In this document: positions 5,137 to 56,052 of the stretch, one piece after another
How the letters are laid out: each line of letters starts with the position of its first letter
Position numbering within the stretch: the stretch's first letter is position 1
Assembly (NCBI GenBank): GCA_026413865.1
Contig: JAOAKB010000001.1
Location: 69,624-133,623 of the forward strand
Direction: 5' to 3'
DNA: 64,000 bases
Origin: Nitrososphaeria archaeon
GTDB lineage: Archaea > Thermoproteota > Nitrososphaeria > JACIWG01
Notes under the pieces: generated by a model
Told to the model about the DNA's origin: nothing
Databases searched by the model: none
What the model saw: only the letters and a program-made list of their open reading frames with translations
Translations under genes and position numbers: made by a program

Positions 5137-5237
5137 ACCACATCATCAAAAGTGAGAAAGTACGTCTATAAAAAAATTATTTTTACATACACTATATTGG
5201 CTAATTAGTAAGAATATTTATATAATAAAATATAAAT

Positions 5238-6613: not shown

Positions 6614-6674
6614 GCTTAGTCATCAATCCTCTACAGAGCCTAATAAAAAATTTTAAAACATTATCAAACACAGA

Positions 6675-7097: not shown

Positions 7098-7133
7098 AAA
7101 ACTTTTATGTAATAGATTATCTGGGAAACAGGT

Positions 7134-15986: not shown

Positions 15987-16044
15987 GTTTGCACAAAACT
16001 TTATAAATATAAAATTTGCTCGAAAGGCTAAAGTGCAAAATTAG

Positions 16045-35887: not shown

Positions 35888-36199
35888 TTATTCTGACAAA
35901 ATTTCCTTTAAATCTAAGCCTCCAGTAGATTTAATTGATAGAACAGAAATTCTAAAGTTTTTCCCCAAAGCTCTGCCCAAGTCTATTGATGAACCATTGT
36001 ATTCGATTACTGGAATAGAGTTCTTTTTACAGTCCCTTAAAAGCTTCTGCCTAATTTCTGGCTTAACGGATGTGGAGATTAAAATAGCCTTAGAACCCTT
36101 AAGCTCTTCCATAACTTCTTTAGTACCATACACTATTTTACCCTTTTTTGTAACTTGCTCAAGTAGAGCTTCAATTTGACTTTTGTTCAACATTCTCAC
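35888..36199 (-). CDS. rpl30e: 50S ribosomal protein L30e (eL30)
   Basis: L7Ae/L30e-fold sequence (KGKIVYGTKEV...AILISTS). Conserved position after rpoA; its start overlaps the rpoA stop. Confidence 0.8.
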   Translation of the reverse strand: MRMLNKSQIEALLEQVTKKGKIVYGTKEVMEELKGSKAILISTSVKPEIRQKLLRDCKKNSIPVIEYNGSSIDLGRALGKNFRISVLSIKSTGGLDLKEILSE

Positions 36200-39100
36200 C
36201 TTGTGTTATGAACAGGTCAACCATTCCAGTACCAACAGGAATGGGGAGGCCTACTATAACACTTTCGGTTACACCCTTTAACTGTTCAATTTCACCTTTT
36301 ACCGCGGCTTCAGCCAGTGTGGGAACTGTTATCTCAAAGGCAGCTCTAGCAAGAACGCTTGCCTTCCCTCCGACAACACCATGACGACCAACCTGCTTTA
36401 GTGTTCCTGTTACTGTCATTAGGTCCGCAACCAAATATATGTGTCGCATGTCTACTTCTAAACCTTGTTCTTCCATAGTTTTACTTATTTCTCTGACGAG
36501 CGCGGCTCTAGCAGCTTCAATTCCAAGTGTAGACCATATTTCGTAGATGTCATTAGTTATGGTTCTAGTCGGATCAACACCTTCAATCTTCAAAACTTTT
36601 GCAAGATTTGAGCCCTTCGTTTGAATAACCCATTCAGAGCCTTCTTTGACAACCGTGGCTTCAGTAATTCCTGGAATACCCTTAAGACGACTGTTTAAAA
36701 TCTTGTTTCTCATTCTCTGAAGTGAGACTGGGTCAGCACCTTCCACCATCAATATTATAGTGTCCTCGCTAACTACTTCTGGCTTTCTCTTACCAGTTTC
36801 TATTTGTGAGGCAACATATTCTGGTGTGACAACAAGCTCTTCCATAGCCTCCTTGTCTAGGACAAATGTTATTTGACCACTTGGATCAATTTCACTACTT
36901 TTTACAACATCCCCTATTCTTGAGAATCTAATTTCTGCAGCAATCTTTCTTGCAAAGTTAAGGTCTTCAGCAAATTCTGGGAGCAAGTATATGTCCATTG
37001 CTGGTGTAGAAGGCTGCCTTCTAGCGTCTACAAGCTCAATAAGCCTTGGTAGACCTAAAGTGATGTCTCTTTCCCTAACACCTGCAAAGTGGAATGTTCT
37101 TAGAGTCATCTGAGTACTAGGCTCGCCTATGGATTGGGCTGCGACAACACCTACAGCTTCACCAGGCTCGATTAAAGCTTGCTCGAAAAGTTCTACAGTC
37201 CTCTTTAATACGTTTTCCACATTAGTTTTAGGAAGCCTTGACTTACTCAGGGAAACCTTCAATTCCTGTAACAATTTTGGATTGAGTTTGTGAGCATACT
37301 CTTTAAGCAAGTTTTCAAGTTCATCTAATTCAATCGGCTTGCCTTGTGCAACAAGCTGTTCTGCTTCAATAAGTCTTTGAACATTGACAGCTTTGCCATG
37401 ATCACTCTTAGACGGGTCTACACCGTCTTCACCATAAAGGAATTGTATTATTGCACCTTCTGGATCTCTTACAGTCCGATCATATTCTACTCTAAGATGT
37501 TCCATAGCGTTAACCAAACGCCTCTGCATGTATCCACTCTGCTGGGTCCTGACGGCCGTATCAACAAGACCCTCTCTGCCACCCATTGCATGGAAAAAGA
37601 ATTCCAGTGGATTAAGACCGTCTCTATAATTTGATTTTATGAAGCCTCTTGAGTCGGGGTTAGGGTCGTTTGGTTTAAAGTGACACAAAACCCTGTTTTC
37701 ATATCCTCTCATTATTCGTTTTCCACGTATAGACTGCTGTCCTAGAGCTGCAGCCATGTGGCCGATGTTTAGTGATGAACCTCTTGCACCAGTTCTAGCC
37801 ATTATCACTGCACTATTGTCGTCACTCAAGTACTTTTCGGCAACCTTTCCAGCATCATCACGGGCTTTAGAAAGTTCATTTACTATATAAAGTTCCAAAG
37901 CTTCTTCTGGAGAAAGACCTCTCATTAGAGGTAAAGTGCCTTCCTCATACTGTTTTTGAAGTTCCTTTATACGATCGTATGCTTCAGCAATTGATTGATT
38001 TATGGCTTTTCTAGCACTTGGTGGAAGCCAAAAGTCATCATAGCCTATAGTGAAACCTTTTGATGTAATATATGCCTTAATAACCCTAAAGATTGAGTTC
38101 AAGAAACTTCTTGCAACATCACTACCATATTCTTTAACAATTCTATGAAGTATACTGTCAGGCTTTTCTGCACCAATTGATGCCTTGTCGATTACTCCAG
38201 AGACAAGCACACCATCTTTTATAACAACCTGTCTTCCACGCCAGCTTGCCCTAAGAGTATAATTGAAACCTTTTGGAAGGAAAAGCGAGAAAAGTTGTTT
38301 ACCTTGATAAAGTTCTTTTGGCTCCTTTATTGCAGGCTCAGGTATTGGACCAGTGTATCCGCCAATGTTTGCAAGATTAAGAAACTCTTCTTTGGTGAGG
38401 TAGGTGTCATCTTTTGTTAGAAGATATGCCCCTGTAAGGAAATCTCTTATTGCACCAATTATTGGTCCACCATATCTTGGTGAAAGAATCTGATCTTGAA
38501 CCCTCATTAGAAGCTCAGCTTCGCATCTAGCTTCCTCACCCTGTGGAACATGAAGGTTCATTTCATCACCATCGAAGTCAGCATTGTATGGTGGACATAC
38601 GGCAGGATGAAGTCTGAATGTTCTACCCGGTAAAACTTTAGCATGATGAGCCATAATCGACATTCTATGAAGTGAAGGCTGCCTATTAAATAATACTATG
38701 TCACCGTCAACAAGATGTCTTTCAACAACATATCCTGGGGCTAAGGCAGCAGCAACAGCCTTCCTATCCTGAACATAATCTAATCTAATCTTTACACCAT
38801 CTGGTCTTATAATATAGTTTGCACCAGGATAATTATCGCCATTGATAACAAGTTGTCTAAGCCTTTCAATATTCCAGCTCGTAACCTTTTCTGGAATTGT
38901 AAGCTTTTTTGCAACCTCAATAGGAATACCGACTTCATTTATATCAAGGTTTGGGTCAGGAGAGATTACAGTCCTGCTTGAGAAGTCAACACGCTTTCCT
39001 GAAAGGTTTCCTCTAAACCTACCTTCTTTACCCTTAAGTCTCTGGCTTAAAGTTCTTAGAGGACGACCAGAACGATGATGGGCTTGTGGAATACCACTTA

Positions 39101-39965
39101 CTTCATTATCAAAGTATGTTGTTACATGATATTGTACAAGGTCTACAAGGTCTTGAACAATAAGTGGAGGTGAACCTGACTCCTTACTTTCTTTAACTCT
39201 TTGATTTGTTCTAAGAATATCAACAAGCTTATGTGTTAAATCATCTTCAGAACGAATTCCCGTTTCAAGTATTATTGATGGACGTACTGTGACAGGTGGT
39301 ACGGGTAGAACTTGTAAAACAAACCATTCAGGCCTAATCTTCTCAAGGTCGTATCCCAAGAGTATAAGATTTTTATCGCTTATATCTTCAAGCCACGCCC
39401 TAATCGAGCTCGCTAGAAGACGTGAAGGACCCTCCTCTCTTATTTCATAGAATGTTGTAGGCTTCACAAGCTGTATTTCATATTTTGCACTACCACAATG
39501 TGGACACTGCCTAACCTTTTTAGCCTTAGACTTAATTTCTCTAGAAATATTTTCGTAAACTTCAGGAGTAACATATCTTCTCTCCTCCAAAATCTTTTTG
39601 TACTCGTTTATAACTTCATCACTTAATATAAGCTTATGACAGACCCTACAAGTAGATTGTAGTATAGTGTATATATCGTCCACAAATGCAACATGGATTA
39701 TAGGTTCGGCTAATTCAATGTGTCCAAAATGTCCTGGACATTTTGCTGAAGTATTGCCGCATGTAGCACACTTTTGTCCAGGTTCAAGTGTCCCAAGCCT
39801 TGGATCCATTAAGCCTCCAGGAACAGGTAAACCATCTCTATCATATGTTTCTGGAGCCGTGATTTCTACAACACTATAGGCCCTAATAATCTGTGGAGAG
39901 AATACAGAAAACTTTATTCCACCAATATTCTTTTGAATCTCTTGAACAGACATTATCATATTCAC
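36171..39965 (-). CDS. rpoA: DNA-directed RNA polymerase largest subunit, unsplit (A' and A'' in one ORF)
   Basis: N-terminal Zn motif CATCGNTSAKCPGHFGHIEL and catalytic NADFDGDEMNLH (A' part). AAQSIGEPSTQMTLRTFHFAGV plus a trigger-loop-like region (A'' part) lie in the same 1264-aa frame, with no stop at the expected junction (about 37190-37440). Confidence 0.93.
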   Translation of the reverse strand: MNMIMSVQEIQKNIGGIKFSVFSPQIIRAYSVVEITAPETYDRDGLPVPGGLMDPRLGTLEPGQKCATCGNTSAKCPGHFGHIELAEPIIHVAFVDDIYTILQSTCRVCHKLILSDEVINEYKKILEERRYVTPEVYENISREIKSKAKKVRQCPHCGSAKYEIQLVKPTTFYEIREEGPSRLLASSIRAWLEDISDKNLILLGYDLEKIRPEWFVLQVLPVPPVTVRPSIILETGIRSEDDLTHKLVDILRTNQRVKESKESGSPPLIVQDLVDLVQYHVTTYFDNEVSGIPQAHHRSGRPLRTLSQRLKGKEGRFRGNLSGKRVDFSSRTVISPDPNLDINEVGIPIEVAKKLTIPEKVTSWNIERLRQLVINGDNYPGANYIIRPDGVKIRLDYVQDRKAVAAALAPGYVVERHLVDGDIVLFNRQPSLHRMSIMAHHAKVLPGRTFRLHPAVCPPYNADFDGDEMNLHVPQGEEARCEAELLMRVQDQILSPRYGGPIIGAIRDFLTGAYLLTKDDTYLTKEEFLNLANIGGYTGPIPEPAIKEPKELYQGKQLFSLFLPKGFNYTLRASWRGRQVVIKDGVLVSGVIDKASIGAEKPDSILHRIVKEYGSDVARSFLNSIFRVIKAYITSKGFTIGYDDFWLPPSARKAINQSIAEAYDRIKELQKQYEEGTLPLMRGLSPEEALELYIVNELSKARDDAGKVAEKYLSDDNSAVIMARTGARGSSLNIGHMAAALGQQSIRGKRIMRGYENRVLCHFKPNDPNPDSRGFIKSNYRDGLNPLEFFFHAMGGREGLVDTAVRTQQSGYMQRRLVNAMEHLRVEYDRTVRDPEGAIIQFLYGEDGVDPSKSDHGKAVNVQRLIEAEQLVAQGKPIELDELENLLKEYAHKLNPKLLQELKVSLSKSRLPKTNVENVLKRTVELFEQALIEPGEAVGVVAAQSIGEPSTQMTLRTFHFAGVRERDITLGLPRLIELVDARRQPSTPAMDIYLLPEFAEDLNFARKIAAEIRFSRIGDVVKSSEIDPSGQITFVLDKEAMEELVVTPEYVASQIETGKRKPEVVSEDTIILMVEGADPVSLQRMRNKILNSRLKGIPGITEATVVKEGSEWVIQTKGSNLAKVLKIEGVDPTRTITNDIYEIWSTLGIEAARAALVREISKTMEEQGLEVDMRHIYLVADLMTVTGTLKQVGRHGVVGGKASVLARAAFEITVPTLAEAAVKGEIEQLKGVTESVIVGLPIPVGTGMVDLFITQGENVEQKSN

Positions 39966-44714: not shown

Positions 44715-45514
44715 GTGGGTGGATTGCCCACTGACAAGGAGTTTAGAGGAGTAGAAGATATACCTGAACCTTTTAAAGTTACAAGATTCAAAGATGCCAT
44801 AGGATTCCTTATAGGTCCAGCAATAATTTCCGTTTCAGTCGGAATAGGAACGGGGGAGGTTATTTCTGGACCACTGGCAATATTATCTTATGGGCCAACA
44901 ATCCTATGGTTTGCACTAATATCAATATTCTTCCAAACAGTTAGTGCCATTGCAGGAACAAGATACACAATGGCAACAGGAGAACCTCTGATAAATGGTA
45001 TTTCAAGACTTTGGCTTGGAAAAAAGTTTGGGCCATAATCTGGACAGTTTCAGACTTTGTTAGATTAATGTGGCCATACTATATGGTATTAACAGGCACA
45101 AAATTTGCATACATAACACTCGGTAGGCCTCCAGAGGCGCCTGAACAATACCTTGTTGGTGTATTAGGTGTTGTCGGTCTGTTCATAGGAATATTACCAT
45201 TACTGTTTGGTGAAAAGATACAGAAGACACTAGGATGGCTTTCATGGTGGGATGTGGTTATTGAGGTTGGCATAATCGTTATACTCACACTTTTAGTAGT
45301 GCCAGCAAATGTTCTGTTTGAAGTTTTTGTGGGATTCTTTTCTTTTGGATCATTACCGTCTGGTGTAAATTTTGTACTGCTTCCAAAAGCGTATAAGATG
45401 AAATGGTGAGAGATACTTGTTATTATTGTGGGACTGGTTTTCTACTCGATAATATTTGTTGCCTTTGTACTTCTTTGGAATAAGGATATAACCACATCCT
45501 CTCCCCTTTTTTAG
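44715..45514 (+). pseudogene. Decayed Nramp-superfamily-like transporter gene, a paralogue of 60337-61773
   Basis: The reading frame shifts -1 in the A6 run at 45020-45025. An in-frame TGA lies at 45407-45409 and is followed by 34 more hydrophobic codons. Total length is only about half that of the intact 478-aa paralogue. Both fragments align with the paralogue (GEPLINGISRLWLGKK|VWAIIWTVSDFVRLMWPYY versus GETIMQGFHKLKPRKFWTWFTAIFVFIQQAWPAW). Confidence 0.7.
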
Positions 45515-45584
45515 TTACTTAACCGGTTTTTATGAAATAAGAGTAGATTCTATAGCAAGTAACCTAGGAAAAGAATTTTTGATG

Positions 45585-45658
45585 CGGGCCTGCCGGGATT
45601 CGGACCCGGGACCCTCGGGTTAAAAGCCCGATACTCTACCTGGCTGAGCTACAGGCCC
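45585..45658 (-). tRNA. tRNA-Lys (anticodon UUU)
   Basis: The reverse complement folds by hand into a cloverleaf: acceptor GGGCCTG/CAGGCCC, D arm GCTC-AGCCAGGTA-GAGT, anticodon arm TCGGG-CTTTTAA-CCCGA, variable loop GGGTC, T arm CCGGG-TCCGAAT-CCCGG, discriminator G. No intron and no encoded CCA. It is a GC-rich island in AT-rich DNA. A TATA-like ataattatagg lies about 30 nt upstream. Confidence 0.92.
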
Positions 45659-45690: not shown

Positions 45691-45879
45691 TTATTCTTTT
45701 TTCTCTTTTTTGTTGTATATAAAAATTTTTAGGTAGTTTAGTATTGTTATTGAGGTTAGTATGAATGTGATGAGTGCTGCTGTTGTATTGTTTATTTTTT
45801 CGTATATTATTAGGAGTATTGTTGCTGCAAGTAGGCCTATATAGAGAGCCATTGTCTCGTGTAGATTTTGTATTATCAT
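45691..45879 (-). CDS. Small two-TM membrane protein, last gene of the minus-strand pilin-like trio
   Basis: 62 aa with two hydrophobic helices and a basic tail (KKEKKE). Its start overlaps the upstream gene's stop by 4 nt. Confidence 0.4.
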   Translation of the reverse strand: MIIQNLHETMALYIGLLAATILLIIYEKINNTTAALITFILTSITILNYLKIFIYNKKEKKE

Positions 45880-46280
45880 GGTCCCTTTGTATAGTATGCT
45901 ATGATTTTGTTATCCGATTTCAGGTATATGGTTTTTTGCACGTCTATTGGTTTTTTTATTTCGAGTATGGCTATTGAGTTTGGTGGTATAGTGTTTTCTT
46001 TACATATACTCATGTTCGCGTATTTTAGAGAAAATGGTGCGCTAGTGTTTCCTAGTACAGTTTCTGTTATTTTTATTGGTACGGGGTTTGGGTTGTAGAG
46101 TATAAGTTGAGATAATGAACCATTCACTGTTTGCAATATTTCAAGCTTGTATACTGTTTCTGGAGAAAATGTTATGCTGCCAAACGTTTGTGTGTAAGTT
46201 GAATATAGTATTGTTGATGTTATGATCGTTAATGTTAATATTATTAGTGGAGTTGTTGCAGACGATAATGCTTTAGCCAA
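45876..46280 (-). CDS. Pilin-like protein with a class III (prepilin-type) signal peptide
   Basis: N-terminus MAKA|LSSATTPLIILTLTIITSTILY is a short basic leader, a small residue, then a ~20-aa hydrophobic helix. The C-terminal part is beta-rich. Confidence 0.5.
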   Translation of the reverse strand: MAKALSSATTPLIILTLTIITSTILYSTYTQTFGSITFSPETVYKLEILQTVNGSLSQLILYNPNPVPIKITETVLGNTSAPFSLKYANMSICKENTIPPNSIAILEIKKPIDVQKTIYLKSDNKIIAYYTKGP

Positions 46281-46628
46281 CTATATCACCCTAAAATTTT
46301 CTCCAGACACACATACTAGAGTTAGATGATAAAGTTGTGATAAATTTGCTGGCAAAAATATTTCAGTAGCTTCATACGGTTTTAGGCATAGGATTTCAGA
46401 CAAAGAATATTCTCTATTGTTTACAATAAGTTTTGAAACATAATATTCCATTGGACTATTGTTCTTCAAAAATATTATGGTACATTTATCAGAATTAAAG
46501 TAGCCTAATAATTCTATTCGAAGAAAATTTGGTCGAACTTCAAATACAGGCATGCTAATAGCTGTTAGCGGAGAAAGTATTAATGTCAAAGCAATCAGAC
46601 ATAATATTTCATCAAACACTGACTTCAA
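46281..46628 (-). CDS. Small secreted/pilin-like protein (N-terminal hydrophobic helix)
   Basis: TTG start. MKSVFDEILCLIALTLILSPLTA followed by a beta-rich domain. Abuts the next gene with no gap. Confidence 0.35.
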   Translation of the reverse strand: MKSVFDEILCLIALTLILSPLTAISMPVFEVRPNFLRIELLGYFNSDKCTIIFLKNNSPMEYYVSKLIVNNREYSLSEILCLKPYEATEIFLPANLSQLYHLTLVCVSGENFRVI

Positions 46629-46714
46629 ATTATATCACAAGATAAAATTATATTATGGAATAAAAGCGCCAACATAAGTTGGCTTAAAAAATTCTGTAAA
46701 CAAAGTTTTCTTGT
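46629..46714. promoter_or_regulatory. Divergent promoter region of the two pilin operons, with a 16-bp palindrome
   Basis: ttaaaaaa (46684-46691) lies about 27 nt upstream of ATG 46715. ataatataatttta (reverse complement of about 46643-46656) lies about 22 nt upstream of TTG 46628. Both spacings suggest leaderless transcripts. A perfect palindrome GCCAAC-ATAA-GTTGGC sits at 46668-46683, in the BRE position of the plus-strand promoter. Confidence 0.4.
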
Positions 46715-47143
46715 ATGCAAACAAAAAAATTGTTTAATAAAAGAAGAGGTTTAAGCAGGGTCCTCACAGAAATAATATTTCTAATGCTAGCAACAACTAC
46801 AGCATTAGGAGCCTACACAATATACAATGGCTACAGTTCAAGCGTGAGTGGAACAACAAAAATTGCAATAGAGCAAGTGGACATTATAGCATCACAAAAT
46901 AAGGCATATGCTACAATAAAAAATTTAGGCACAACAGTTATTCAAGCAATAAATATAACGGTATCAGGAGCAGAGCAAAAATTTTCTGATATCTCTATAG
47001 CACCTGGTGGAGTAAAAACTTTTGAATTAAACTTAGATAACATTGTTTCAGGCAAACAGTACACAGTTGTTGTAAAGGTTTTGGATACAGATAAAAAGTC
47101 AATATTGTACACAGCAACATATACAGTAACAGCTAAACCATAA
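46715..47143 (+). CDS. Type IV pilin-like protein (class III signal peptide + Ig-like domain), paralogue 1
   Basis: MQTKKLFNKRRG|LSRVLTEIIFLMLATTTALGAYTIY. The C-terminal beta-sandwich-like sequence is ATIKNLGTTVIQAINITVSG...YTVVVKV. Confidence 0.7.
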   Translation: MQTKKLFNKRRGLSRVLTEIIFLMLATTTALGAYTIYNGYSSSVSGTTKIAIEQVDIIASQNKAYATIKNLGTTVIQAINITVSGAEQKFSDISIAPGGVKTFELNLDNIVSGKQYTVVVKVLDTDKKSILYTATYTVTAKP

Positions 47144-47154
47144 AGGCGAATTAC

Positions 47155-47580
47155 ATGAAAAAGAGGAAAGCTCTTTCCAGAGTTCTGACAGAAATCATCT
47201 TCCTAATTTTAGGACTTACTACAGCAGTAGGAGCATATTCACTATATAATAGCTCTATTTTATCTACTAGTCAGGTTGCAAAGATTGTTTGCACAGACAC
47301 AATCATAGCTGCTGGATCACAGGAAGTGAATGTTATAGTAAAGAATATCGGGAATATTGCAGTAGAAGTTTCTGTTGAAGCAGTAAGTGAATATGGTAGA
47401 AGTGAAAATCTAAGCATAACAAAAGGAAATAGAATATTATTGGAGCCTGGAATGGAAAAAATGATTACCACGAAATGTTCGGGTTTAATTGCAGGGTTAA
47501 GGTACAACGTTTTCGTTACGGCAAGAGTCAATGACGAGATAGTTGGATATGTTATTGCTGAAAGTATAGCATTACCTTAA
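47155..47580 (+). CDS. Type IV pilin-like protein, paralogue 2
   Basis: MKKRKA|LSRVLTEIIFLILGLTTAVGAYSLY has a mature N-terminus nearly identical to the upstream paralogue. It is followed by VIVKNIGNIAVEVSVEA...YNVFVTA. Confidence 0.7.
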   Translation: MKKRKALSRVLTEIIFLILGLTTAVGAYSLYNSSILSTSQVAKIVCTDTIIAAGSQEVNVIVKNIGNIAVEVSVEAVSEYGRSENLSITKGNRILLEPGMEKMITTKCSGLIAGLRYNVFVTARVNDEIVGYVIAESIALP

Positions 47581-47636
47581 ACTGTGAGGGCCATACCAAA
47601 TTTTTTGCTTAAAAATATTTTTTTACAATTTTTCTT

Positions 47637-49187
47637 TTGATGAAAACAGGTAAAGGAATACTGACGGATATTTTTTGGAAAGAGCCTGAAGAAAAGTTTA
47701 GGGAAAGACTTTTTACTCAAGCGTTAGGTAATAGGATCAGGTTTCTAGATTTTTCTGATTTTAAAGGTAGGCTTGTTGACAGTTATGTTCTTGATTTAGG
47801 TGAAATGTATAAGCCTATAGTGTACATTTTTGATTGTGGCAATTTTGGATATTATTATGTTAGAGAGCCTAATATTGATGGCGAAGATAGAGAGTGTTTT
47901 ACTATTGTTCTTGGATACCTTTTATCTTCTACAAATTTTAATGAAAATTTTTATAGCATAAATTTTTTGGAGGACAAAATTTTTGATATTATAAAAGAGG
48001 TTGGACTAGATGTTAGCTCTAGTAAGGTTAAACTTTTTTCAGAAATCATTTTCCGTGAAGTTTCAGGCTATAGTGTATTAGAGCCGCTTATGGCAGACGA
48101 TAATATTACTGACATCTCATGCTCCGCCTTCAACCAGCCTGTGTTTGTTAAACATAGAGAGTATTCAGAATATAATTGGATGAATACAAACATAATGTTT
48201 TCTGAAGATGAACTTGACACTTTAGTTCAGAAGATTGCATCAAAACATGGCAAGGGAGTGAATATCCTTTCACCAGCTTCAGAGATTACTACACGCGAGG
48301 GACATAGAATAATGTTAACCTTCAAAAACGAGATAACATTACCCTCATCCACATTTTCAATAAGAAAGTTTCCTAAAAATCCATGGACTATAGCTAAGCT
48401 TATTTCATACAAGACTTTAAACGAGGATTTGGCAGCATACCTTTGGCAGGTTTTAGAAGATAGAAACTTTATTATTATAAGTGGTGCAATGGGATCAGGA
48501 AAGACAACACTTCTTTCAACACTTTTACAGCTTATAGATTTAAGGCAAAAGATTTTAACAATAGAAGATACTGCAGAAATTGCTTTAGGAAAAAGGATTA
48601 ATTGGCAAAGACTGGTTACTAGAAAAGGTTTACAGGCTGGAGTAAATGAAATCAACTTAATTGATTTAAGCCTGCTTTCTTTAAGAAGCTCATCAGACTA
48701 TGTTGCACTCGGTGAAGTTAGAGGGACAGAAATTCAAGCCCTTGTTCAAGCGGCTGGAACAGGGTTAGGCTGCATAACAACCTTTCATGCTGGAAGCTTT
48801 CAAGAACTTTTGAGTAGAATGAGGGGAAAACCACTTTCCGTAGAAGACTCCTTTCTACAGACTATAAAGTGTATTGTATTCTTATCTAATGTTAAAGCAT
48901 CTAGTGGAAAAATCTTAAAAAAAGTTACTTCAATAGAAGAGCCTTATTTTATAGAAGGCGGACTTTTTAAAAGTAATGTAGTATATGATTATAGTGCTGA
49001 TGGAGAAGAAATTAAGCTTGATAAAATAATTTCAAGAAGCAGGCTTATTAATAAAAAGGATGATTATACAGTTAGAGTGTTTAGAAAGAAAGAGTTTCTT
49101 GAAAGCATTTTGAATCATAGGGCATACACCTTCGAGCAGCTTCAGACACATCTTACAAGATTTTATGGTGATAACTTTGGAAACTAG
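47637..49187 (+). CDS. Type II/IV secretion-family assembly ATPase (FlaI/UpsE/VirB11-like)
   Basis: Walker A GAMGSGKTT (48483-48509), Asp box ILTIEDTAEI, Walker B DYVALGEVRGTE and His box TTFHAGS. The likely start is ATG 47640. Confidence 0.88.
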   Translation: MMKTGKGILTDIFWKEPEEKFRERLFTQALGNRIRFLDFSDFKGRLVDSYVLDLGEMYKPIVYIFDCGNFGYYYVREPNIDGEDRECFTIVLGYLLSSTNFNENFYSINFLEDKIFDIIKEVGLDVSSSKVKLFSEIIFREVSGYSVLEPLMADDNITDISCSAFNQPVFVKHREYSEYNWMNTNIMFSEDELDTLVQKIASKHGKGVNILSPASEITTREGHRIMLTFKNEITLPSSTFSIRKFPKNPWTIAKLISYKTLNEDLAAYLWQVLEDRNFIIISGAMGSGKTTLLSTLLQLIDLRQKILTIEDTAEIALGKRINWQRLVTRKGLQAGVNEINLIDLSLLSLRSSSDYVALGEVRGTEIQALVQAAGTGLGCITTFHAGSFQELLSRMRGKPLSVEDSFLQTIKCIVFLSNVKASSGKILKKVTSIEEPYFIEGGLFKSNVVYDYSADGEEIKLDKIISRSRLINKKDDYTVRVFRKKEFLESILNHRAYTFEQLQTHLTRFYGDNFGN

Positions 49188-50940
49188 TACACTATTATTT
49201 TATGTAATGGTACTAACATTTGCAGCTAATCTCATACTATTAATTTTAGAAAAGGATGAAACTCCCGGCAAATGGTTTGAGAAAGTGAACCTTCACCTCA
49301 AGAATAGGTTTTTGAGTTCAAGATTCTTTGAAAAAATTGTTTATGATATTGCCTCAGACCTCATACCAAAATATAAAAGTATTAGCGTTGAAAAAGGCTC
49401 TGACGGACTCCTAGAATATATTGGTGAAATAGTTTACAAGTCGACATTATTCAGCATATTTTCCTTAGCCATATCATTAACTTTAGCATACCTTTTCAAT
49501 AATCTAATAATAGTAATTTTTGGAATATTAAGTTTTACAAGCATATTATATCCCTACATCGACTACCTTCTCTTAAGAGGAGAAAAGGATAGAGAAATAT
49601 ATAATGAACTAATATTTTTTGCATTCACAGAATACATTTGCCAAGAAGGTGGAAGAAATATAGATTATGCCTTAAATCATGTAATTAATGGAAGACTCTT
49701 CAAATGGATTAGGACAGAGGCAAAAATAGTTCTCACAGACCTACTGATACACTCTAAAAATTTATACAATTCTTTAAGAGAAAGAGCTTCAAACACAAAG
49801 GCAACAGTCTACAGAAGATTTTTGGACGGATATGCTGGAATATATGCTACTGGAGGAAACCTTCTCACATACATGAGCCACCAAATGGAGGTTTTAAAGA
49901 ACGATTTAAAATTTAGGATAGGGCAGTTTCTTGAAAAAGCTCAAATGATTTCTGAAGTAAATATTATTTTAACTGTAATAATGCCAATAGTAGTCATAGT
50001 TTCCTCAAACTCTCGAGCCGGCATAATAATGCATGTTATAGCGTTCTCATTCCTAATCATTTATATAATTGCAATGTCATTTTTTATAGAAGATTCCAGG
50101 CCTAAGACTGGACTGGGAAACATTAGAGTTAAACCAAAAGTTTCTGAAATAATATTAGCACTTCTAGTTTTTGTAGCAACATATATTATGTTTAAAAGTT
50201 TATGGCTTCCAATAACAGTAGCACTAATAACATTTTCTACATTATACGGTTATAGGGGAAAATGTAGACTTAAAGAGGGAAAAGATCTTGAGGAACCTTT
50301 ACCAATTTTTGTACGTGATATAGCAGACTATAGGACTGCTGGAAAAAGTATTTACCAGGCAATCACATTATCTTTGAAAGAAAAGGAGTATAATGAAAAA
50401 TTTAAGAAAGAGGTTATGGTGGTTGTAAACAAGCTTTCTCTAAACTCTACAGACCTTAGAACAAGTACGGGTGTGTGGCTTTTTGACTATGTGTTCGATT
50501 GCCTAGACTTAATGCAGAAAAGTGGAGGAGGCAGTACCAGCGTATTAATTGAACTAGCGAACATGATAGAAGATATAATTTTAGAAAAGGAGAAGGTTAG
50601 AAGAGAAACCGCACTCGCTTCATACCTTACTTATCTGGCACCAATACTCTTCACACTTGTTTCAGCATCAATGCTAGCACTTTTAGAAACAATGATAGTG
50701 GGAGCAAATTCTGGAACAAGCCTACTTCCTATCAATGCCATTCAAATAGAAAAGGATTGGCTTTACATGATGATCGTTGCAAACACATTTTCCAATACAT
50801 ATATAACAGGGCTTCTTAAAGAAGGAAGCTACGAGAACATATACATTACGGCTATAACACTGGTTATAGCATTAGTATGTATACTACAAATGGATAACAT
50901 GGTTCACCTTCTAAAAACAACAATTTTTGGCTTAAGGTGA
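49165..50940 (+). CDS. Polytopic pilus platform protein (FlaJ/TadC/UpsF-like, two T2SS-F-type repeats)
   Basis: 591 aa. Two cytoplasmic helical repeats are each followed by TM bundles (...GGRNIDYALNHV...ATGGNLLTYMSHQ... and ...AGKSIYQAITLS...SGGGSTSVLIELAN...). Its start overlaps the ATPase stop by 23 nt. Confidence 0.72.
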   Translation: MVITLETSTLLFYVMVLTFAANLILLILEKDETPGKWFEKVNLHLKNRFLSSRFFEKIVYDIASDLIPKYKSISVEKGSDGLLEYIGEIVYKSTLFSIFSLAISLTLAYLFNNLIIVIFGILSFTSILYPYIDYLLLRGEKDREIYNELIFFAFTEYICQEGGRNIDYALNHVINGRLFKWIRTEAKIVLTDLLIHSKNLYNSLRERASNTKATVYRRFLDGYAGIYATGGNLLTYMSHQMEVLKNDLKFRIGQFLEKAQMISEVNIILTVIMPIVVIVSSNSRAGIIMHVIAFSFLIIYIIAMSFFIEDSRPKTGLGNIRVKPKVSEIILALLVFVATYIMFKSLWLPITVALITFSTLYGYRGKCRLKEGKDLEEPLPIFVRDIADYRTAGKSIYQAITLSLKEKEYNEKFKKEVMVVVNKLSLNSTDLRTSTGVWLFDYVFDCLDLMQKSGGGSTSVLIELANMIEDIILEKEKVRRETALASYLTYLAPILFTLVSASMLALLETMIVGANSGTSLLPINAIQIEKDWLYMMIVANTFSNTYITGLLKEGSYENIYITAITLVIALVCILQMDNMVHLLKTTIFGLR

Positions 50941-50947
50941 TAAAAGT

Positions 50948-52138
50948 ATGGAGAATTTAGAAAACTATAGAATTTTATGCTTAGAAATAACAGTCTATGA
51001 AGAAAATGGGATAATAGAATATAATGTTAAGGAACCAAATTTGGAGGAAGAAAGCTTAAACAAGATTAATGCAATAATAGAAAACATTTTTTCAAAAGAC
51101 ATTTTAGGCAAAAATTTTGAAAAAAACAAATTGATTGAAAAATATGGGTTGAAAGATGAAGAACTATATCATCTTAACAAGAACATATCACCATATAGGC
51201 AACTGTATCCAATACTCTTGGACGAGAATATACTTGAGGCAACAATATTGTCACCCGAAAAACCAGTTTACGTTAGACACAAACACTTTCTAAAACAACA
51301 GTATATCAAAACAAACATAAACTTCAAGAACGAAAAAGAGTATGAAATGCTAATTGAGAAGATTAGAAATAAACTAATAGAATATGGTGATGGAAAATTC
51401 TATGAGGGACCATTAGATGAGAAATTTTACGCAAATCTTGTTATACAAAAGCAACCATATACAAGTTTTTGCATAATCAAAAGAAGGATAGAAATTTTTG
51501 ACGAAGAAATTTTTAAAGATAAGCATTTGACACCACAAGAACTAGCTTATCTTTGGACAATGCTTGAAATAAAAACTACGATGGCAGTCACAGGGTCAAC
51601 AAGAGAATACAGAAGAAACATCTTAAATAAGCTAGTTCAACTTATTCCAAAAAAAGCTCGTATAATGGTTGTAGAAAACACTACCACAACATTATATCCA
51701 CAGGAATATTTGATAAAAATTCATATTACAAAAAGCAAAGAGGAGTTTAAAAAAATCTTCGAAATCATTCAAAAGAATGATATCGAATATGCTATAATAG
51801 AGGGAGAAGAGATAGAAGAAGAAATAAAAATACCTTCTACAAGAAACTGCTACATTTACATGAGACAAACGCCGTTGACTGTCACGAATAAGATTCAGGT
51901 GATAGTGAACATTACAAACAATATTAAATCTAATAGAATAGAGTTGATTGAAGAGTTTGGAGAATATAAGACAAACATTTATTTTGAAGTATATGATGGA
52001 CCAGAAAAAGTTTATGATAAAAGTAGAATATTACAGCATTGGGCAAAAATAAACCATTATAGTAGAGAAAAAGTTTTAGAGACAATTTCACTAAAAATAA
52101 ACTATATACTATATCTACAGGACAATAGGACCTCTTAG
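50948..52138 (+). CDS. Degenerate (predicted catalytically dead) paralogue of the secretion ATPase
   Basis: Collinear with the 516-aa ATPase: ILLDENILEATILSPEKPVYVRHK versus LMADDNITDISCSAFNQPVFVKHR, and ELAYLWTMLE versus LAAYLWQVLE. Walker A is replaced by VTGSTREYRRN (51587-51619), the Asp box is IMVVENTTT, and the His box is lost (CYIYMRQ). Confidence 0.7.
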   Translation: MENLENYRILCLEITVYEENGIIEYNVKEPNLEEESLNKINAIIENIFSKDILGKNFEKNKLIEKYGLKDEELYHLNKNISPYRQLYPILLDENILEATILSPEKPVYVRHKHFLKQQYIKTNINFKNEKEYEMLIEKIRNKLIEYGDGKFYEGPLDEKFYANLVIQKQPYTSFCIIKRRIEIFDEEIFKDKHLTPQELAYLWTMLEIKTTMAVTGSTREYRRNILNKLVQLIPKKARIMVVENTTTTLYPQEYLIKIHITKSKEEFKKIFEIIQKNDIEYAIIEGEEIEEEIKIPSTRNCYIYMRQTPLTVTNKIQVIVNITNNIKSNRIELIEEFGEYKTNIYFEVYDGPEKVYDKSRILQHWAKINHYSREKVLETISLKINYILYLQDNRTS

Positions 52139-52169
52139 TTGCTTAAAAGGAGAAAATGAACATAATCTT

Positions 52170-53702
52170 TTGAACAGTATGAAAAGGAAAGGACAGTCTG
52201 CAAGTATAGCAATAGTCTTTATTGCTCTAATGTTTATTTCAGGATACACAATATTCTATAATCAGATTGAGGCATTCAGACAAGAGTTTAGATTGAAAGA
52301 AGATATTTTATCAAGACAGGTTGACAGAGCAAAAGAGAATATAAAGATATTTTATGAAAATAATAAGATTATTTTATATAACGATTGGACAAAATTTTCA
52401 GAAATAAAATATATAGTTTTCTTGAATAAAAGTAACTTTGTAGAGAATGTTGTTGAAACAAAAGTCATATTGCCTCCTGGAGGAAGAGAAAATTTACAGA
52501 TTACATGGAAAAGTGATAAAGTTGGTGTAATAACATCACTTGGAAACCTCTTCTTAAAAGAAAATGAGGACGTAAAAGAGGACATAATACCAGTTGGATT
52601 ATATAATGGAGAGGGAAGCATAACTCCAGTAAGACTCTACATTAATCCAGAAAATCCGAAAGTATTCAATGTGGTTGTAGGATTACATTATGTTTACACA
52701 TATAATATCACTAACTGTCAGTTGATTGCAGTACGCTATGTTGATGCACCACGTTCTCTTGAAGACAATCCTTACAGGGGATGGGTATATTATATGCATC
52801 CTGTTATACCATTCTACGACCTTTCTGGTTGGGCAAGCTGGCAAATGGTTTCCTTCACAAGTGGTAAAGTTAGAACAGTTTATGATACAGCATATATTTT
52901 TGTATACAAGTTCCTTTGTCAATCAGGCGGCCAAAAGGTTGAGAGCGTTACAGGAACAACAACATATTCATACTATATACAGCAGGTTAGTACTGATGGT
53001 AGTAGAGCATGGATACTAATGTTGTCTTCAACATCAGGGACAGGAGCCCAAGTCTTCTATTCTCTTGTTAGTCCCACTAGTTCGAATCCTGGTTCTGCAA
53101 ATGGTTTAGGTGTAACATTATCGGGATCCTCTTATGCTAGTTATGGTATTGTATCATTCAATTACCCTTATTTTATAGTTTACAAGTATGATTCATCCAC
53201 CTACTATTATTATGTTTACAAGATAAGTGGTGGAAGTGCTATAAACAAGCCATGGGCTTCCGGTAGTTCAAGCTCACCATACAAAAGCTATAGTTCACCT
53301 CCAAGTGTTATCATTACAAGAGATGGATACTATATCGAAAGAAACGGTGATTCATTCACATCATATAATATGGAGACTGGAGGATACGGTGACCAAGTAT
53401 TTTGGACTGCACCATATTCTGTACTAGGCTGCAAGTATACAAGATACGGTCTCATACTGCTAAGATGGAACGGATTCGACATACTCAACAGTAGACTACA
53501 GGTTGTAAAAAGTGTTAACCTACCAGAAGGCTACAACTGGTACTATACATTACAAACATACTTTTCAAATTTTGTGAGAGAGAAAACAGACTATGGTTAC
53601 GAATATTTCGAATACCAGCTTTCATTAATAGACTCGAATACAGCACTAGCAATATTATCGGGCCCAGATGGGTTAGCTAAAATAGTTAAACTCACTTTCT
53701 AA
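52170..53702 (+). CDS. Large (about 510 aa) pilin-like protein with a class III signal peptide and a Ser/Tyr/Gly-rich beta-rich C-terminal region
   Basis: MKRKG|QSASIAIVFIALMFISGYTIFY, with the likely start at ATG 52179. The C-terminal half is rich in S/Y/G (SSTSGTGAQVFYSLVSPTSSNPGSANG...YDSSTYYYYVYKISGGS...). Confidence 0.6.
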   Translation: MNSMKRKGQSASIAIVFIALMFISGYTIFYNQIEAFRQEFRLKEDILSRQVDRAKENIKIFYENNKIILYNDWTKFSEIKYIVFLNKSNFVENVVETKVILPPGGRENLQITWKSDKVGVITSLGNLFLKENEDVKEDIIPVGLYNGEGSITPVRLYINPENPKVFNVVVGLHYVYTYNITNCQLIAVRYVDAPRSLEDNPYRGWVYYMHPVIPFYDLSGWASWQMVSFTSGKVRTVYDTAYIFVYKFLCQSGGQKVESVTGTTTYSYYIQQVSTDGSRAWILMLSSTSGTGAQVFYSLVSPTSSNPGSANGLGVTLSGSSYASYGIVSFNYPYFIVYKYDSSTYYYYVYKISGGSAINKPWASGSSSSPYKSYSSPPSVIITRDGYYIERNGDSFTSYNMETGGYGDQVFWTAPYSVLGCKYTRYGLILLRWNGFDILNSRLQVVKSVNLPEGYNWYYTLQTYFSNFVREKTDYGYEYFEYQLSLIDSNTALAILSGPDGLAKIVKLTF

Positions 53703-53734: not shown

Positions 53735-54802
53735 TCATTCAAAATAGGCTATCATGTCAGCATAGTTAATGCGAAGTCTTTTTCCCACATGTTCTGGCAA
53801 AATTTCTATAATCTTTTCAGCAGGCTTATCCCACTTTTCTAGTATATCAAGAATCTTACCCCTAACCAAATAAACTCTGCCACATTGACACTTAAAATAC
53901 GAACTTTTCCTATTCTTCAATTCATGACCATTCAATGGAGCAAGAGAATAAAGAGAACTTTTATCTAAGTTTTCCAGAAAAGTGCTCCTGATAAAATTAA
54001 CTTGACCGCTTTCATCACAAATTTTACACAACCTTTCAATCCTATCTTCAGAAAATGTTAGAGGATCCCTTTCAACAATTGACTTTAAAAGTTCAGCCGA
54101 TTTAGGAAATATCAAGCCACCAGAAACCTTCTCATCTATGATCGAAAGAATCCTCAGTTTTGTGAGAAAATTTGCAACAATCCTTTCAGCCTCCGGCCCA
54201 GAAACATTTCCTTCAAAAAATTCTTTTGCAAAAGACAGCATATCTTTTTCAGGAAGCTTTGAAAGTGCAATTAGATGCCTGAACGTGAATCTGAAACCAT
54301 TTTCAAAATAATCTTCACTAGAATCATTTACTTTATATATAAATTCTTTTACCTCAGCCGACAATCTTGTAAGCTGCAGAATATAGTCTACTGTGTAGGC
54401 TGAAAGATTATATTTTTTGGCAATTTCTCTAACAGTCAAGCCACAATTTCTTTCAATATTAAATAATTCTCCAGCCTTAAGATAATCTATTCTACCCCTC
54501 TGATAGTTCCTTTTAAAACACTCAATCTTAACATCTTCATCAGACAAGTGTACAATTTCAGCTCTAATAGTTTCAAATCCAAGTTCTAGTGCAGCCCTCC
54601 ATCTATGTTCACCATCAACAATCATAAAACCATCAGTCCTTGGCGTAACAAGTATTGGTGGAATACCTTCAACACCCTTTTCTAAAAGGTCCCGCTTTAA
54701 GCTCTCATATTCTTTATAGCACATACGGTTTGCGTTAAAGGGATTAGGATAAACCTTTTTCAGTGGCAGATATGTGAATTCACACTTTGGCCAAGCCTTC
54801 AT
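53735..54802 (-). CDS. ParB/Spo0J-like DNA-binding protein (ParB N-terminal domain + HTH + C-terminal Cys motifs)
   Basis: YPNPFNANRM..., PILVTPRTDGFMIVDGEHRWRAALELGFETIRAEIV (the GERRxRA box with R to H), NYQRGRIDYLKAGELF, and the HTH LTVREIAKKYNLSAYTVDYIL. The C-terminus carries CKICDESG and FKCQCG. Confidence 0.75.
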   Translation of the reverse strand: MKAWPKCEFTYLPLKKVYPNPFNANRMCYKEYESLKRDLLEKGVEGIPPILVTPRTDGFMIVDGEHRWRAALELGFETIRAEIVHLSDEDVKIECFKRNYQRGRIDYLKAGELFNIERNCGLTVREIAKKYNLSAYTVDYILQLTRLSAEVKEFIYKVNDSSEDYFENGFRFTFRHLIALSKLPEKDMLSFAKEFFEGNVSGPEAERIVANFLTKLRILSIIDEKVSGGLIFPKSAELLKSIVERDPLTFSEDRIERLCKICDESGQVNFIRSTFLENLDKSSLYSLAPLNGHELKNRKSSYFKCQCGRVYLVRGKILDILEKWDKPAEKIIEILPEHVGKRLRINYADMIAYFE

Positions 54803-55565
54803 AAGAGAACACCGTAACCTTGTCCAAAACTTTCCTTAGATTGTTAAAGTCTAGACAAAAATGTTTTGAAAGAAGCCTTAATGTTACAGGATTTTCTAGA
54901 CCAAACGACCTGAAAACCCTATTACATGAAACATATATTGATATTATACACTTAACTTTCAAAGACTCACCTAAAAAACGGTAATCTTCCAAAAATTTCA
55001 AGCAATATAGTTTAATTTTAGACCAGAGAATATTTTCGTTTAATTGATAAAAGTTTCTAACATATTCTCTGACAAAAATGTTTGACTTTAAACTTTCAAG
55101 TAAAAAGTTAAGATATGAGCTTAAGTTAAAACTTTTGTAAGAATAATATTTCCAGAACCTTGAAAGAATTCTCATACAGTTTCTTTCATTAACCTTCAAA
55201 CCCATACTACGAAATTCTTTCAAAACCATTTCACAGAAAAATGGATTTAAGTTCTTGCAAGCAGAATAAAGGCTGAAGAAAGCAATTTCAAGACCATTAA
55301 ATCTTGTACCAGACTCTATAATAGATTCTGCAATATAAGATGCATCATTAAGAATGGTGCTATTAAAGTCTAGACGGTCACAAACATCCTTTATTATATA
55401 CAGTATGCTAGAACGCTTAGAGGCAAATGGTTTAGGAAAATTGTGAAAAAAAGGTTTAGACTGATGGTCATATATTTCTTCAAAAATTTTACCACACTTT
55501 TCACAAACATATTCTTCATTATCAAAAACTACTCTACTACCACATTCACTACATTTATATGGCAT
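54780..55565 (-). CDS. Divergent, shortened TFB/TFIIB-like protein (Zn ribbon + cyclin-like repeats, reduced B-reader/linker)
   Basis: MPYKCSECGSRVVFDNEEYVCEKCGKIFEE closely mimics the TFB Zn ribbon. LDFNSTILNDASYIAESIIESG...EIAFFSLYSACKNLN resembles the first cyclin-fold helices. At 261 aa it is shorter than the roughly 300 aa I recall for canonical TFB. It overlaps the ParB-like gene by 23 nt. Confidence 0.55.
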   Translation of the reverse strand: MPYKCSECGSRVVFDNEEYVCEKCGKIFEEIYDHQSKPFFHNFPKPFASKRSSILYIIKDVCDRLDFNSTILNDASYIAESIIESGTRFNGLEIAFFSLYSACKNLNPFFCEMVLKEFRSMGLKVNERNCMRILSRFWKYYSYKSFNLSSYLNFLLESLKSNIFVREYVRNFYQLNENILWSKIKLYCLKFLEDYRFLGESLKVKCIISIYVSCNRVFRSFGLENPVTLRLLSKHFCLDFNNLRKVLDKVTVFSYEGLAKV

Positions 55566-55617: not shown

Positions 55618-55821
55618 CTAAAATTCTATCAAATGCTTTTTAATAGGATCGAGAAAATCTGGAGAAACGGCTCCTATGATATCAAAAATCCTTTTATCAG
55701 TTACAGAAATAATATCACATACACAAAACTCAAAAACATGTAGAAGTGCCAAGATTTTCAGCCTTAGAGCATCACCGCAAGCCCTAAGCAGCCTCGCACA
55801 AACTCTATCCAAACCATTCAT
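55618..55821 (-). CDS. Short ArsR/SmtB-family HTH protein (lacks the wing and C-terminal helix; possibly truncated)
   Basis: ALRLKILALLHVFEFCVCDI matches the ArsR alpha2-alpha3 region with the As(III)-type CVC motif. It is only 67 aa long. It is divergent from acr3 and sits 52 nt upstream of the TFB-like gene on the same strand. Confidence 0.5.
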   Translation of the reverse strand: MNGLDRVCARLLRACGDALRLKILALLHVFEFCVCDIISVTDKRIFDIIGAVSPDFLDPIKKHLIEF

Positions 55822-56052
55822 AGGATTTTTTAAATAAAATATTAGCTAAGCTCATTATTTAACCTTTATAAGAATATTTAAATACTGTTATTTTTATCCC
55901 CAATTTATGCAAAAAATTTATAAAAATTGAGGTATTGAAAATGTCTAAAGCGACACTACTTTCCTGGATTTTAGGCCAAATTCATGATATAGTGAACATG
56001 ACTACAACAAAAAAAGCTTTTTCATCTTATACCATTATAGCAGGCGCCTATA

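Follow-up and report, generated by a model that had tools for sequence, protein, structure and literature searches.

We analyzed a type IV pilus-like gene cluster at positions 45691 to 53702 of a 64,000-nucleotide (nt) stretch (hereafter, the window) of contig JAOAKB010000001.1, from a Nitrososphaeria archaeon (assembly GCA_026413865.1), together with a linked operon that encodes TFB-like and ParB-like proteins. All nine open reading frames (ORFs) of the cluster were confirmed at their coordinates and on their strands in the ORF list, and the locus is a real, conserved type IV pilus-like gene cluster. The same nine genes occur in the same order in at least 16 loci from metagenome-assembled genomes (MAGs) or metagenomes, at protein identities of 48 to 87% (several of the sequences are identical or nearly so), and because this order recurs, the arrangement is not a matter of chance. 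Six genes lie on the plus strand and three run divergently on the minus strand, in an operon layout with overlaps or small gaps throughout. The features are as follows.

45584 to 45658, minus strand: tRNA-Lys(UUU), called by ARAGORN, bordering the small-gene end of the module
45691 to 45879, minus strand: two-helix membrane hairpin of 62 amino acids (aa), the last gene of the minus-strand trio (hydrophobic at residues 9 to 27 and 32 to 50; no [KR][GA] motif)
45876 to 46280, minus strand: 134-aa prepilin-like protein, MAKA followed by LSSATTPLIILTL (FlaFind-type core KALSSA; transmembrane [TM] residues 7 to 25)
46281 to 46628, minus strand: 115-aa pilin-like protein with the N-terminus MKSVFDEILCLIAL... 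and no recognizable leader (TM residues 1 to 19; no cleavage motif)
46629 to 46714, no strand assigned: divergent spacer containing ATAAAAGCGCC, studied in an alignment of seven orthologous spacers; putative promoter region
46715 to 47143, plus strand: pilin 1, 142 aa, beginning MQTKKLFNKRRG-LSRVLTEIIFLML, with the cleavage context KRRG before LSRVLTEIIFLML (ORF list and alignment)
47155 to 47580, plus strand: pilin 2, 141 aa, MKKRKA followed by LSRVLTEIIFLIL, a paralogue of pilin 1
47637 to 49187, plus strand: assembly ATPase of the FlaI/GspE/VirB11 family, 516 aa, likely start at the ATG at 47640
49165 to 50940, plus strand: TadC/FlaJ-type platform protein, 591 aa (Pfam T2SSF in two stretches, 6e-10)
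50948 to 52138, plus strand: ATPase2, 396 aa, a catalytically dead paralogue of the assembly ATPase (hhalign, motifs, and the ratio of nonsynonymous to synonymous substitution rates [dN/dS])
52170 to 53702, plus strand: 510-aa pilin-headed protein, MKRKG followed by QSASIAIVFIALMF (QSASIAIVF...), likely start at 52179, as in the NCBI call
53735 to 54802, minus strand: ParB-family protein, 355 aa, with an N-terminal ParB/Noc domain, a helix-turn-helix (HTH) region, and a C-terminal Cys pair (Pfam ParB_N, 2e-8)
54780 to 55565, minus strand: TFB/TFIIB-like protein, 261 aa (Pfam TFIIB Zn-ribbon, 28.5 bits against a cutoff of 29)

The original prediction, made without database searches, had named two tandem paralogous pilins with KRRG and KRKA contexts, a divergent trio of 115-, 134-, and 62-aa proteins with hydrophobic helices and one MAKA-LSS leader, a FlaI/UpsE/VirB11-family ATPase with intact boxes, a 591-aa FlaJ/TadC-like platform protein whose gene overlaps that of the ATPase by 23 nt, a second ATPase paralogue with a destroyed P-loop, and a 510-aa protein with an MKRKG prepilin N-terminus. 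All of these were borne out, the trio by the ORF list and hydropathy and the 510-aa N-terminus by an NCBI start at the same Met. Its count of six prepilin-type proteins was too high: four proteins have a cleavage motif plus a helix, while the 115-aa protein is pilin-like and leaderless and the 62-aa protein is a hairpin. It also missed the linked TFB-like/ParB-like operon at 53735 to 55565, just beyond its coordinates.

Close homologues are confined to MAGs labeled Nitrososphaeria archaeon, from hot-spring assemblies such as DRTY7, and the host is a thermophilic, uncultured Nitrososphaeria lineage, not a member of the Sulfolobales. We scanned component hidden Markov models (HMMs), built from our own alignments, over 28 loci and ranked the relatives by the identity of their assembly ATPase: Tier 1 at 69% or more (L001 to L008, L015, and L016), Tier 2 at 55 to 57% (L009, L010, and L017 to L020), and Tier 3 at 38 to 42%. 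Tiers 1 and 2 share one architecture, with the 62-, 134-, and 115-aa genes on the minus strand, one or two pilins, ATPase, TadC, ATPase2, and the 510-aa gene on the plus strand, and the ParB and TFB genes on the minus strand. The combination of ATPase, pseudo-ATPase, and giant pilin singled out in the original prediction is kept in full in Tiers 1 and 2; Tier 3 retains the run from pilin through ATPase and TadC to ATPase2, and this ATPase-TadC-ATPase2 triad persists down to 38% ATPase identity. Every major gene is under purifying selection, with dN/dS values of 0.18 to 0.22 for pilin 1, 0.14 to 0.15 for pilin 2, 0.21 to 0.27 for the 134-aa gene, 0.158 for the 510-aa gene, 0.10 for ParB, 0.21 for TFB, and, against the L003 orthologues, 0.157 for the ATPase, 0.152 for TadC, and 0.136 for ATPase2. 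The 62-aa protein, which is 62 to 75% identical among relatives, is weakly constrained (0.4 to 0.9). The ORF list contains no frameshift or stop in any module gene.

A 515-aa NCBI product, encoded on a 136-kb contig, is 100% identical to the assembly ATPase of the window. The protein matches Pfam T2SSE (4e-26) and the structures of Archaeoglobus GspE (PDB 2OAP, 2e-59) and Sulfolobus FlaI (4IHQ, 3.5e-40), and its four boxes are intact: Walker A (GAMGSGKT), the Asp box (IEDTAE), Walker B (DYVALGEVRG), and the His box (TTFHAG). The platform protein has about eight hydrophobic segments, and its gene begins at 49165, before the ATPase gene ends at 49187. Judged by sequence, the locus has both a GspE/VirB11/FlaI-type secretion ATPase with all its boxes and the adjoining TadC/FlaJ/GspF-type platform protein of an archaeal type IV pilus system.

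The two tandem pilins are about 33 to 34% identical, and their LSR.L.E and GAY..Y motifs, along with motifs of the beta-sandwich, are unchanged throughout the Tier 1 to 3 homologues. A simple test for a [KR][GA]-x motif with a hydrophobic helix after it picked out four proteins, those of 134, 142, 141, and 510 aa, and the class III-like site ([KR][GA], then [LQ]S and a helix) is kept in all homologues of these four. Cleavage of class III type is thus predicted for them, as for the pilins of an archaeal type IV pilus system. Only two of the four satisfy the strict FlaFind-type hexamer. On the minus strand, where the three genes abut or overlap, the 134-aa protein is a candidate minor pilin; its Tier 2 orthologues begin with MKKG followed by LSTALTSLIIL. 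All relatives of the 115-aa protein have the N-terminus MK[SLYA][VA]FDE[IL], and the protein of the window starts straight into its helix (MK-SVFDEILCL). The HMMs of the 115-aa protein and the pilins give weak reciprocal matches.

The spacer between the divergent gene sets contains an invariant ATAAAAGC[GA]CC at 46660 to 46670, which has no other exact match in the window and is kept in Tiers 1 and 2 even though the sequence around it varies. The pilin ATG is preceded, at a distance of about 30 nt, by CTTAAAA. In minus-strand orientation, the invariant element is GG[CT]GC immediately before TTTTAT. We note this unusually GC-rich element at what would be the position of a B recognition element (BRE) as a possible lead to the target of a TFB paralogue, not as a result.

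The locus is a type IV pilus cluster in the style of TACK clade 4, a group that includes the Sulfolobales Aap, Ups, and Bas systems in subclades 4A/4I and whose simple plan consists of an ATPase, TadC, and PilA-type pilins (Makarova et al. 2016, PMC4858521). Like members of that clade, it has a FlaI/GspE ATPase adjoining TadC and short, tandemly duplicated PilA-type pilins with G-then-LS class III signals; TFIIB neighbors are frequent in the clade, an approximately 500-aa secreted protein is encoded in the bindosome locus, and adhesin- or S-layer-like extras occur in thaumarchaeal loci. Because it follows this simple plan, the locus is less exotic than the original prediction suggested. It differs from the clade in gene order, in failing every curated Ups and Bas threshold, and in having a dead ATPase paralogue right after TadC, a divergent small-protein trio, and a ParB-like gene, none of which is mentioned in the census of Makarova et al. 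(2016). The core is ordinary; since the host is not a member of the Sulfolobales, comparison with Ups, Aap, and Bas alone was too narrow a frame of reference.

That the locus is not an archaellum, as the original prediction had stated, agrees with the lack of Pfam or NCBIfam matches to FlaH, FlaX/CDE, FlaF/G, or archaellins and with an NCBIfam FlaI score of 236 bits against a cutoff of 550. The stated mismatch to the Ups, Aap, and Bas layouts likewise stands. The Ups genes are ordered upsX-E-F-A-B, and here the order is different, the platform protein scores 177.5 bits against UpsF (cutoff, 400), and the 134-aa protein matches UpsA weakly (E value of 0.0025, 17.9 bits; cutoff, 130). The Aap content is aapA-X-E-F-B, including AapX, an Fe-S/radical-SAM-like protein; the module has no ORF or Pfam match of the AapX kind, a judgment made without an Aap-specific model. 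Scores below threshold for FlaI, Ups, and Bas mean that the locus is not a member of those systems. We nevertheless weighed a bindosome-like (Bas-type) assembly, which would form no long filament; its task would be to anchor in the envelope surface proteins with class III signals, such as the 510-aa protein or solute-binding proteins. The best of the weak pilin-level matches are to BasB (N-terminal domain of the 510-aa protein, E value of 3.8e-7, 30 bits) and BasC (pilin 1, E value of 0.02, 15 bits), the ATPase reaches 232 bits against BasE, and Makarova et al. (2016, PMC4858521) describe the Sulfolobus bindosome locus as encoding three PilA-type pilins along with a specific secreted protein, about 500 aa long. 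These scores are far below the curated cutoffs of 230, 260, and 1,000 bits, however, and the platform protein prefers UpsF to BasF, for which it scores 109 bits (cutoff, 1,300). Neither the ORFs of the window nor its relatives show genes for solute-binding proteins or ABC transporters linked to the module, and Bas has neither a second ATPase nor a TFB/ParB pair. We consider a bindosome improbable.

In an hhalign comparison, ATPase2 matched the assembly ATPase family with 98.1% probability (E value of 1.2e-13, 356 columns), and the match covers both the N- and C-terminal domains, which makes it a shortened but full-length paralogue and not a fragment. Other family matches are weak (NCBIfam FlaI, 2e-10; PDB 2OAP, 5e-8). 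Its P-loop reads GSTREYRRN in place of GxxxxGK[ST] (GETASGKTT in the aligned structures), and all four boxes are degenerate: GSTRE[YH]RRN stands at Walker A and VENT at the Asp box, GEVRG is missing from Walker B, and no His box remains. Nine homologues were found among 5.8 billion proteins; those aligned are all 394 to 396 aa long, with GST/AREHRRN invariant. An exhaustive profile search of 1.84 billion representatives returned three clusters at E values below 1e-30, and the next-ranked matches were ordinary secretion ATPases that align over the N-terminal two-thirds. The best match outside the family, P0132 (1,154 aa), consists of two complete tandem secretion-ATPase units with Walker A intact in both.

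Relatives of ATPase2 preserve an intermediate state. In Tier 3, Walker A is intact (GxxKSGKT, as GAAKSGKT or GDKKSGKT), while the Asp-box D, the GEVRG of Walker B, and the His box are lost; in Tiers 1 and 2, GK[ST] is lost as well. This distribution implies a stepwise decay, and ATPase2 is an old and stable part of this locus family that went from a probable nucleotide binder to a pure pseudo-enzyme. The dN/dS of ATPase2 is as low as that of the live ATPase, and the protein is under selection for something other than catalysis. On these grounds, and on its full-length conservation, we rejected the interpretation of ATPase2 as a pseudogene. The broader proposal that the locus is a decaying, nonfunctional remnant, with a duplicated ATPase gene heading for loss in a degenerating island, could draw on the destroyed P-loop and on decay of neighboring genes in this genome (a frameshifted transporter fragment and an internal deletion in an ArsR gene). 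However, ATPase2 is full length in every homologue with its degenerate motif invariant, the triad persists down to 38% ATPase identity, and none of the module genes has a frameshift or stop. Conservation and dN/dS effectively refute the remnant proposal, which we regard as very improbable.

We found no description of a conserved dead assembly-ATPase paralogue in archaeal type IV pilus loci, either in the census of Makarova et al. (2016) or in full-text literature searches. The nearest published parallel is subclade 4D of Pyrobaculum and Thermoproteus, where a shortened secretion ATPase without its C-terminal domain is encoded with a TFIIB homologue (Makarova et al. 2016, PMC4858521); there, however, pilins and TadC are absent and the truncated ATPase is the sole ATPase, whereas the shortened protein of the window joins a complete, pilin-bearing system. 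A functional parallel may lie in the archaellum. FlaH (ArlH), a member of the KaiC/RecA family, is a nonhydrolyzing partner with a P-loop fold, encoded beside the motor ATPase and a stable component of the machine. To our knowledge, accessory cytoplasmic motor partners are understood only for the archaellum (FlaH and FlaX). The logic of FlaH fits Tier 3 ATPase2, with Walker A intact and the catalytic boxes lost, but ATPase2 is a paralogue of the FlaI-type ATPase and in the clade of the window the P-loop lysine is gone. Because the ancestries differ, the analogy is functional only.

The last gene of the plus-strand operon encodes a pilin-headed protein. Its 14 homologues, down to 32% identity, have a near-invariant N-terminus, M.RKG followed by QSASIAIVFIALMFISG. 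The AlphaFold2 model (predicted local distance difference test [pLDDT], 67; predicted template modeling score [pTM], 0.63) has a helix at residues 4 to 45, a beta-sandwich at 55 to 126, and an all-beta C-terminal half that is confident over residues 310 to 450; the top Foldseek matches are WD40 and beta-propellers. With its predicted pilin head and propeller, the protein may be a filament-borne adhesin, a tip subunit, or a minor pilin. In the L012 group of Tier 3, the homologue of this protein again follows ATPase2, and upstream lie a Cdc6/Orc1 paralogue and two giant pilins in which LSR[VI]L.E N-termini are fused to bodies of 494 and 599 aa. Giant pilins of 494 to 642 aa lie beside a Cdc6/Orc1 paralogue at L012 3555 to 6916, L024 4543 to 7904, and L022 4218 to 7708, and the Cdc6/Orc1 paralogue is also present in the Bathyarchaeia-labeled L049.

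The rest of the window is housekeeping in character (RadA, thermosome, EF-1alpha, S7/S12, NusA, a fused rpoA, rpoB, and rpoH). The tRNA-Lys(UUU) gene keeps its position in Tier 1 and Tier 2 relatives (L003 1323 to 1398; L009 6261 to 6335). A search across 44.5 to 57.5 kb found no att-like direct repeat of this gene; since only short chance repeats were present, we rejected recent integration. The genes for RpoB and a 263-aa protein are near the module in both Tier 1 and Tier 2 (L017/L018), and this rpoB-proximal position in two clades indicates long chromosomal residence and vertical descent. The flanks of the module in L009 and L010 are different, which could be taken as a sign of mobility; that argument is weakened by L017 and L018, also of Tier 2, where the module adjoins the same 263-aa gene and rpoB as in the window.

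Convergent with the pilus operon, the TFB-like and ParB-like genes form an operon of their own, in which the two co-oriented reading frames share 23 nt. The ParB family profile matches Noc/ParB/Spo0J structures (1e-14, residues 7 to 155), and the protein scores 48 bits against NCBIfam parB_part (cutoff, 58). Its ParB domain has GEHRWRA where GERRxRA would be expected. The TFB family profile matches the Zn-ribbon structure 1PFT (1e-4) and, weakly, the TFIIB core (0.05), and relatives are annotated as Zn_Ribbon_TF. The pair accompanies the module in all Tier 1 and 2 loci that reach that far, and it stays attached through rearrangements: where the module is inverted relative to the 263-aa neighbor (L020), where the context is another one (L009/L010), and where the pair lies upstream of and co-oriented with the operon (L011). 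The L012 group of Tier 3 loci is without it. TFIIB homologues are the most common predicted regulators in archaeal type IV pilus loci (Makarova et al. 2016, PMC4858521). Our literature searches turned up no report of a pilus locus in a chromosome that is linked to such a pair.

Such a pair has been described in integrative and conjugative elements (ICEs). Every thaumarchaeal ICE has a TFIIB homologue, mostly directly upstream of a ParB-like gene in one operon, a coupling that appears specific to these elements, and the same ICEs encode a prepilin peptidase as well as FlaI, TadC, and pilins (Krupovic et al. 2019, PMC6563490). The window has the same arrangement and thus carries the signature pair of the ICEs without their other hallmarks. 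The proteins are also alike in size, 261 and 355 aa in the window and about 269 and 341 aa in NitNCS1-E3. No other feature of the locus hints as strongly as the TFB-ParB operon at a DNA-related function of the machine, and the module may be the pilus and partition part of a thaumarchaeal-type ICE that became fixed in the chromosome but continues to work in DNA exchange, either in mating-pair formation or in DNA uptake, with the ParB-like protein handling DNA and the TFB-like protein driving element-specific transcription. As in ICEs (Krupovic et al. 2019; Abby et al. 2018), the TFIIB-like gene lies directly upstream of and overlaps the ParB-like gene, FlaI, TadC, and pilin genes are nearby, a tRNA gene borders the module (here in Tiers 1 and 2), and the host class is the same.

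Some distant relatives have settings that would suit an ICE-derived origin, such as the Cdc6/Orc1 paralogue in L012 and L049. In L011 (Tier 3), a 474-aa tyrosine recombinase is encoded directly before the TFB-like and ParB-like genes, all of them upstream of and co-oriented with the operon, and a 674-aa surface protein with a Sec signal and an IS605 OrfB are encoded downstream (3562 to 7483 and 15009 to 16385); this locus may be a mobile version of the module. L013 (203 to 12000) has a related ATPase-TadC pair and ordinary ISPLIATIIL-type pilins among MCM, ParB_N, RadA-like, and DUF87 (HerA/VirB4-like) genes, a setting that looks like that of a plasmid or an integrated element, and a Cenarchaeum relative of the ATPase occurs with a TraG/DUF87 protein and TrbL, that is, in a conjugation-like context.

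Against an ICE-derived module, we found no VirB4/TrbE, VirD4/TraG, VirB6, or replication genes by inspecting the translations of the window ORFs (not all of which were scanned with Pfam) or in the Pfam-annotated flanks of Tier 1 and 2 relatives, and no integrase in the window or those flanks; an integrase was seen solely in the distant L011. Att-like repeats of the tRNA gene were not found either, nor was a prepilin peptidase among the ORFs of the window. The module spans about 10 kb, compared with a median of 64 kb for ICEs, and has been kept vertically near rpoB in two clades, and the absence of the TFB-ParB pair from the L012 group also speaks against this origin. ATPase2 has not been described for ICEs, whose "PilT-family" ATPase is arCOG04116, another protein. 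A scan of IMG/VR with ParB recovered 19 viral ParB-domain loci, none of the 19 with TFB or pilus neighbors, and so gave no support for a viral origin; the pilin alignment had no matches to IMG/VR contigs, and the ATPase had one remote match only. PHROGs returned generic ParB families only for the ParB-like protein and nothing for ATPase2, the 510-aa protein, or TadC. Taken together, we judge an ICE-derived module still used for DNA exchange to be the main rival of the reading that we favor, but on the unlikely side.

We favor, with moderate confidence, a chromosomal, vertically inherited type IV pilus-like machine that builds surface filaments on the simple TACK clade 4 plan, with ATPase2 as a partner and a TFB-ParB operon as its control. 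The plus-strand operon (two pilins, ATPase, TadC, ATPase2, and the 510-aa protein) and the minus-strand trio would be transcribed from the shared AT-rich spacer, and a PibD/FlaK-type peptidase, its gene located elsewhere in the genome, would cleave the 142-, 141-, 134-, and 510-aa prepilins after [KR][GA]. A hexameric live ATPase acting on TadC would then polymerize the two LSRVLTE-type pilins into a filament, with the 134- and 115-aa proteins as putative minor or priming pilin-like subunits and the 510-aa protein sitting on the filament as an adhesin. ATPase2 would not hydrolyze ATP, and in the clade of the window it probably does not bind ATP; we speculate that it is a structural or regulatory partner of the ATPase/TadC motor. 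The TFB-ParB operon appears to have a functional link to the module; the simplest role for it would be that of a dedicated pair for transcription initiation and DNA-binding control.

Several observations count against a filament machine of this kind. There is no candidate for an A24-family prepilin peptidase (PibD/FlaK/EppA) among the ORFs of the 64-kb window. The Arg at +3 of both major pilins departs from the strict FlaFind hexamer, so that their processing is no more than a prediction. The AlphaFold2 model of ATPase2, computed from a nine-sequence alignment, is unusable (pLDDT, 38), and the fold rests on sequence profiles alone. The TFB assignment depends mainly on the Zn-ribbon, itself just below the Pfam cutoff, the TFIIB core being weak. 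We know of no established role for ParB in pilus regulation, and its presence fits DNA handling better than plain adhesion. The uptake machine mentioned in the original prediction is a possible reading.

A bolder interpretation joins these threads. The ATPase-TadC-ATPase2 triad and the TFB-ParB pair could define a distinct, unrecognized class of archaeal filament machine for DNA exchange, a domesticated pilus half of thaumarchaeal conjugation in which the dead ATPase would form a ring on the live motor, with a regulatory or stator role, and DNA would be loaded or marked by the ParB-like protein. We think this unlikely and offer it as speculation. What is new here is the conserved dead ATPase paralogue and the chromosomal link to TFB-ParB; the core is ordinary, and archaeal type IV pilus loci are notoriously variable.

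Other features of the window deserve mention. The rpoA gene (36171 to 39965, minus strand) is a single fused gene of 1,264 aa, with A' at residues 8 to 868 and A'' at 894 to 1253. A split rpoA pair is the usual archaeal state, and we take the fused gene to fit a Nitrososphaeria/thaumarchaeal affiliation. Two ORFs at 44715 to 45409 (plus strand), which differ in frame and are located between tRNA-Lys and the 263-aa gene, are colinear with residues 37 to 102 and 143 to 213 of a 478-aa membrane protein encoded at 60337 to 61773; this remnant is a truncated, frameshifted paralogue and is absent in L003 and L004. At 55618 to 56052, an ArsR-like ORF of 67 aa has lost 34 internal residues, and with them the HTH core, relative to the 108-aa homologue of L002, and the thioredoxin and ArsP genes that come next in relatives are missing after it, indicating local decay of an arsenic resistance cluster. 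Remote from the pilus locus, at 1010 to 3673 (plus strand), an 887-aa protein with a DUF11-type repeat has the N-terminus MVRKAIALTILITIILSTSPLTSYA, which can be read as a Sec or a class III-like signal; it is possibly a surface or S-layer protein.

The ATPase2 family provides a natural series in which a duplicate of a motor ATPase lost its catalytic boxes and then its P-loop under strong selection, and it is a convenient case in which to study how secretion ATPases come to have pseudo-enzyme partners. For the TFB paralogue, the conserved GC-rich element at the BRE position between the divergent operons is a target that can be tested. A pilus operon tied to a TFB-like/ParB-like pair has so far been reported only for thaumarchaeal conjugative elements, and its occurrence in the chromosome of a thermophilic Nitrososphaeria lineage bears on whether type IV pili are used for DNA transfer by those elements and on whether chromosomes have captured the module.

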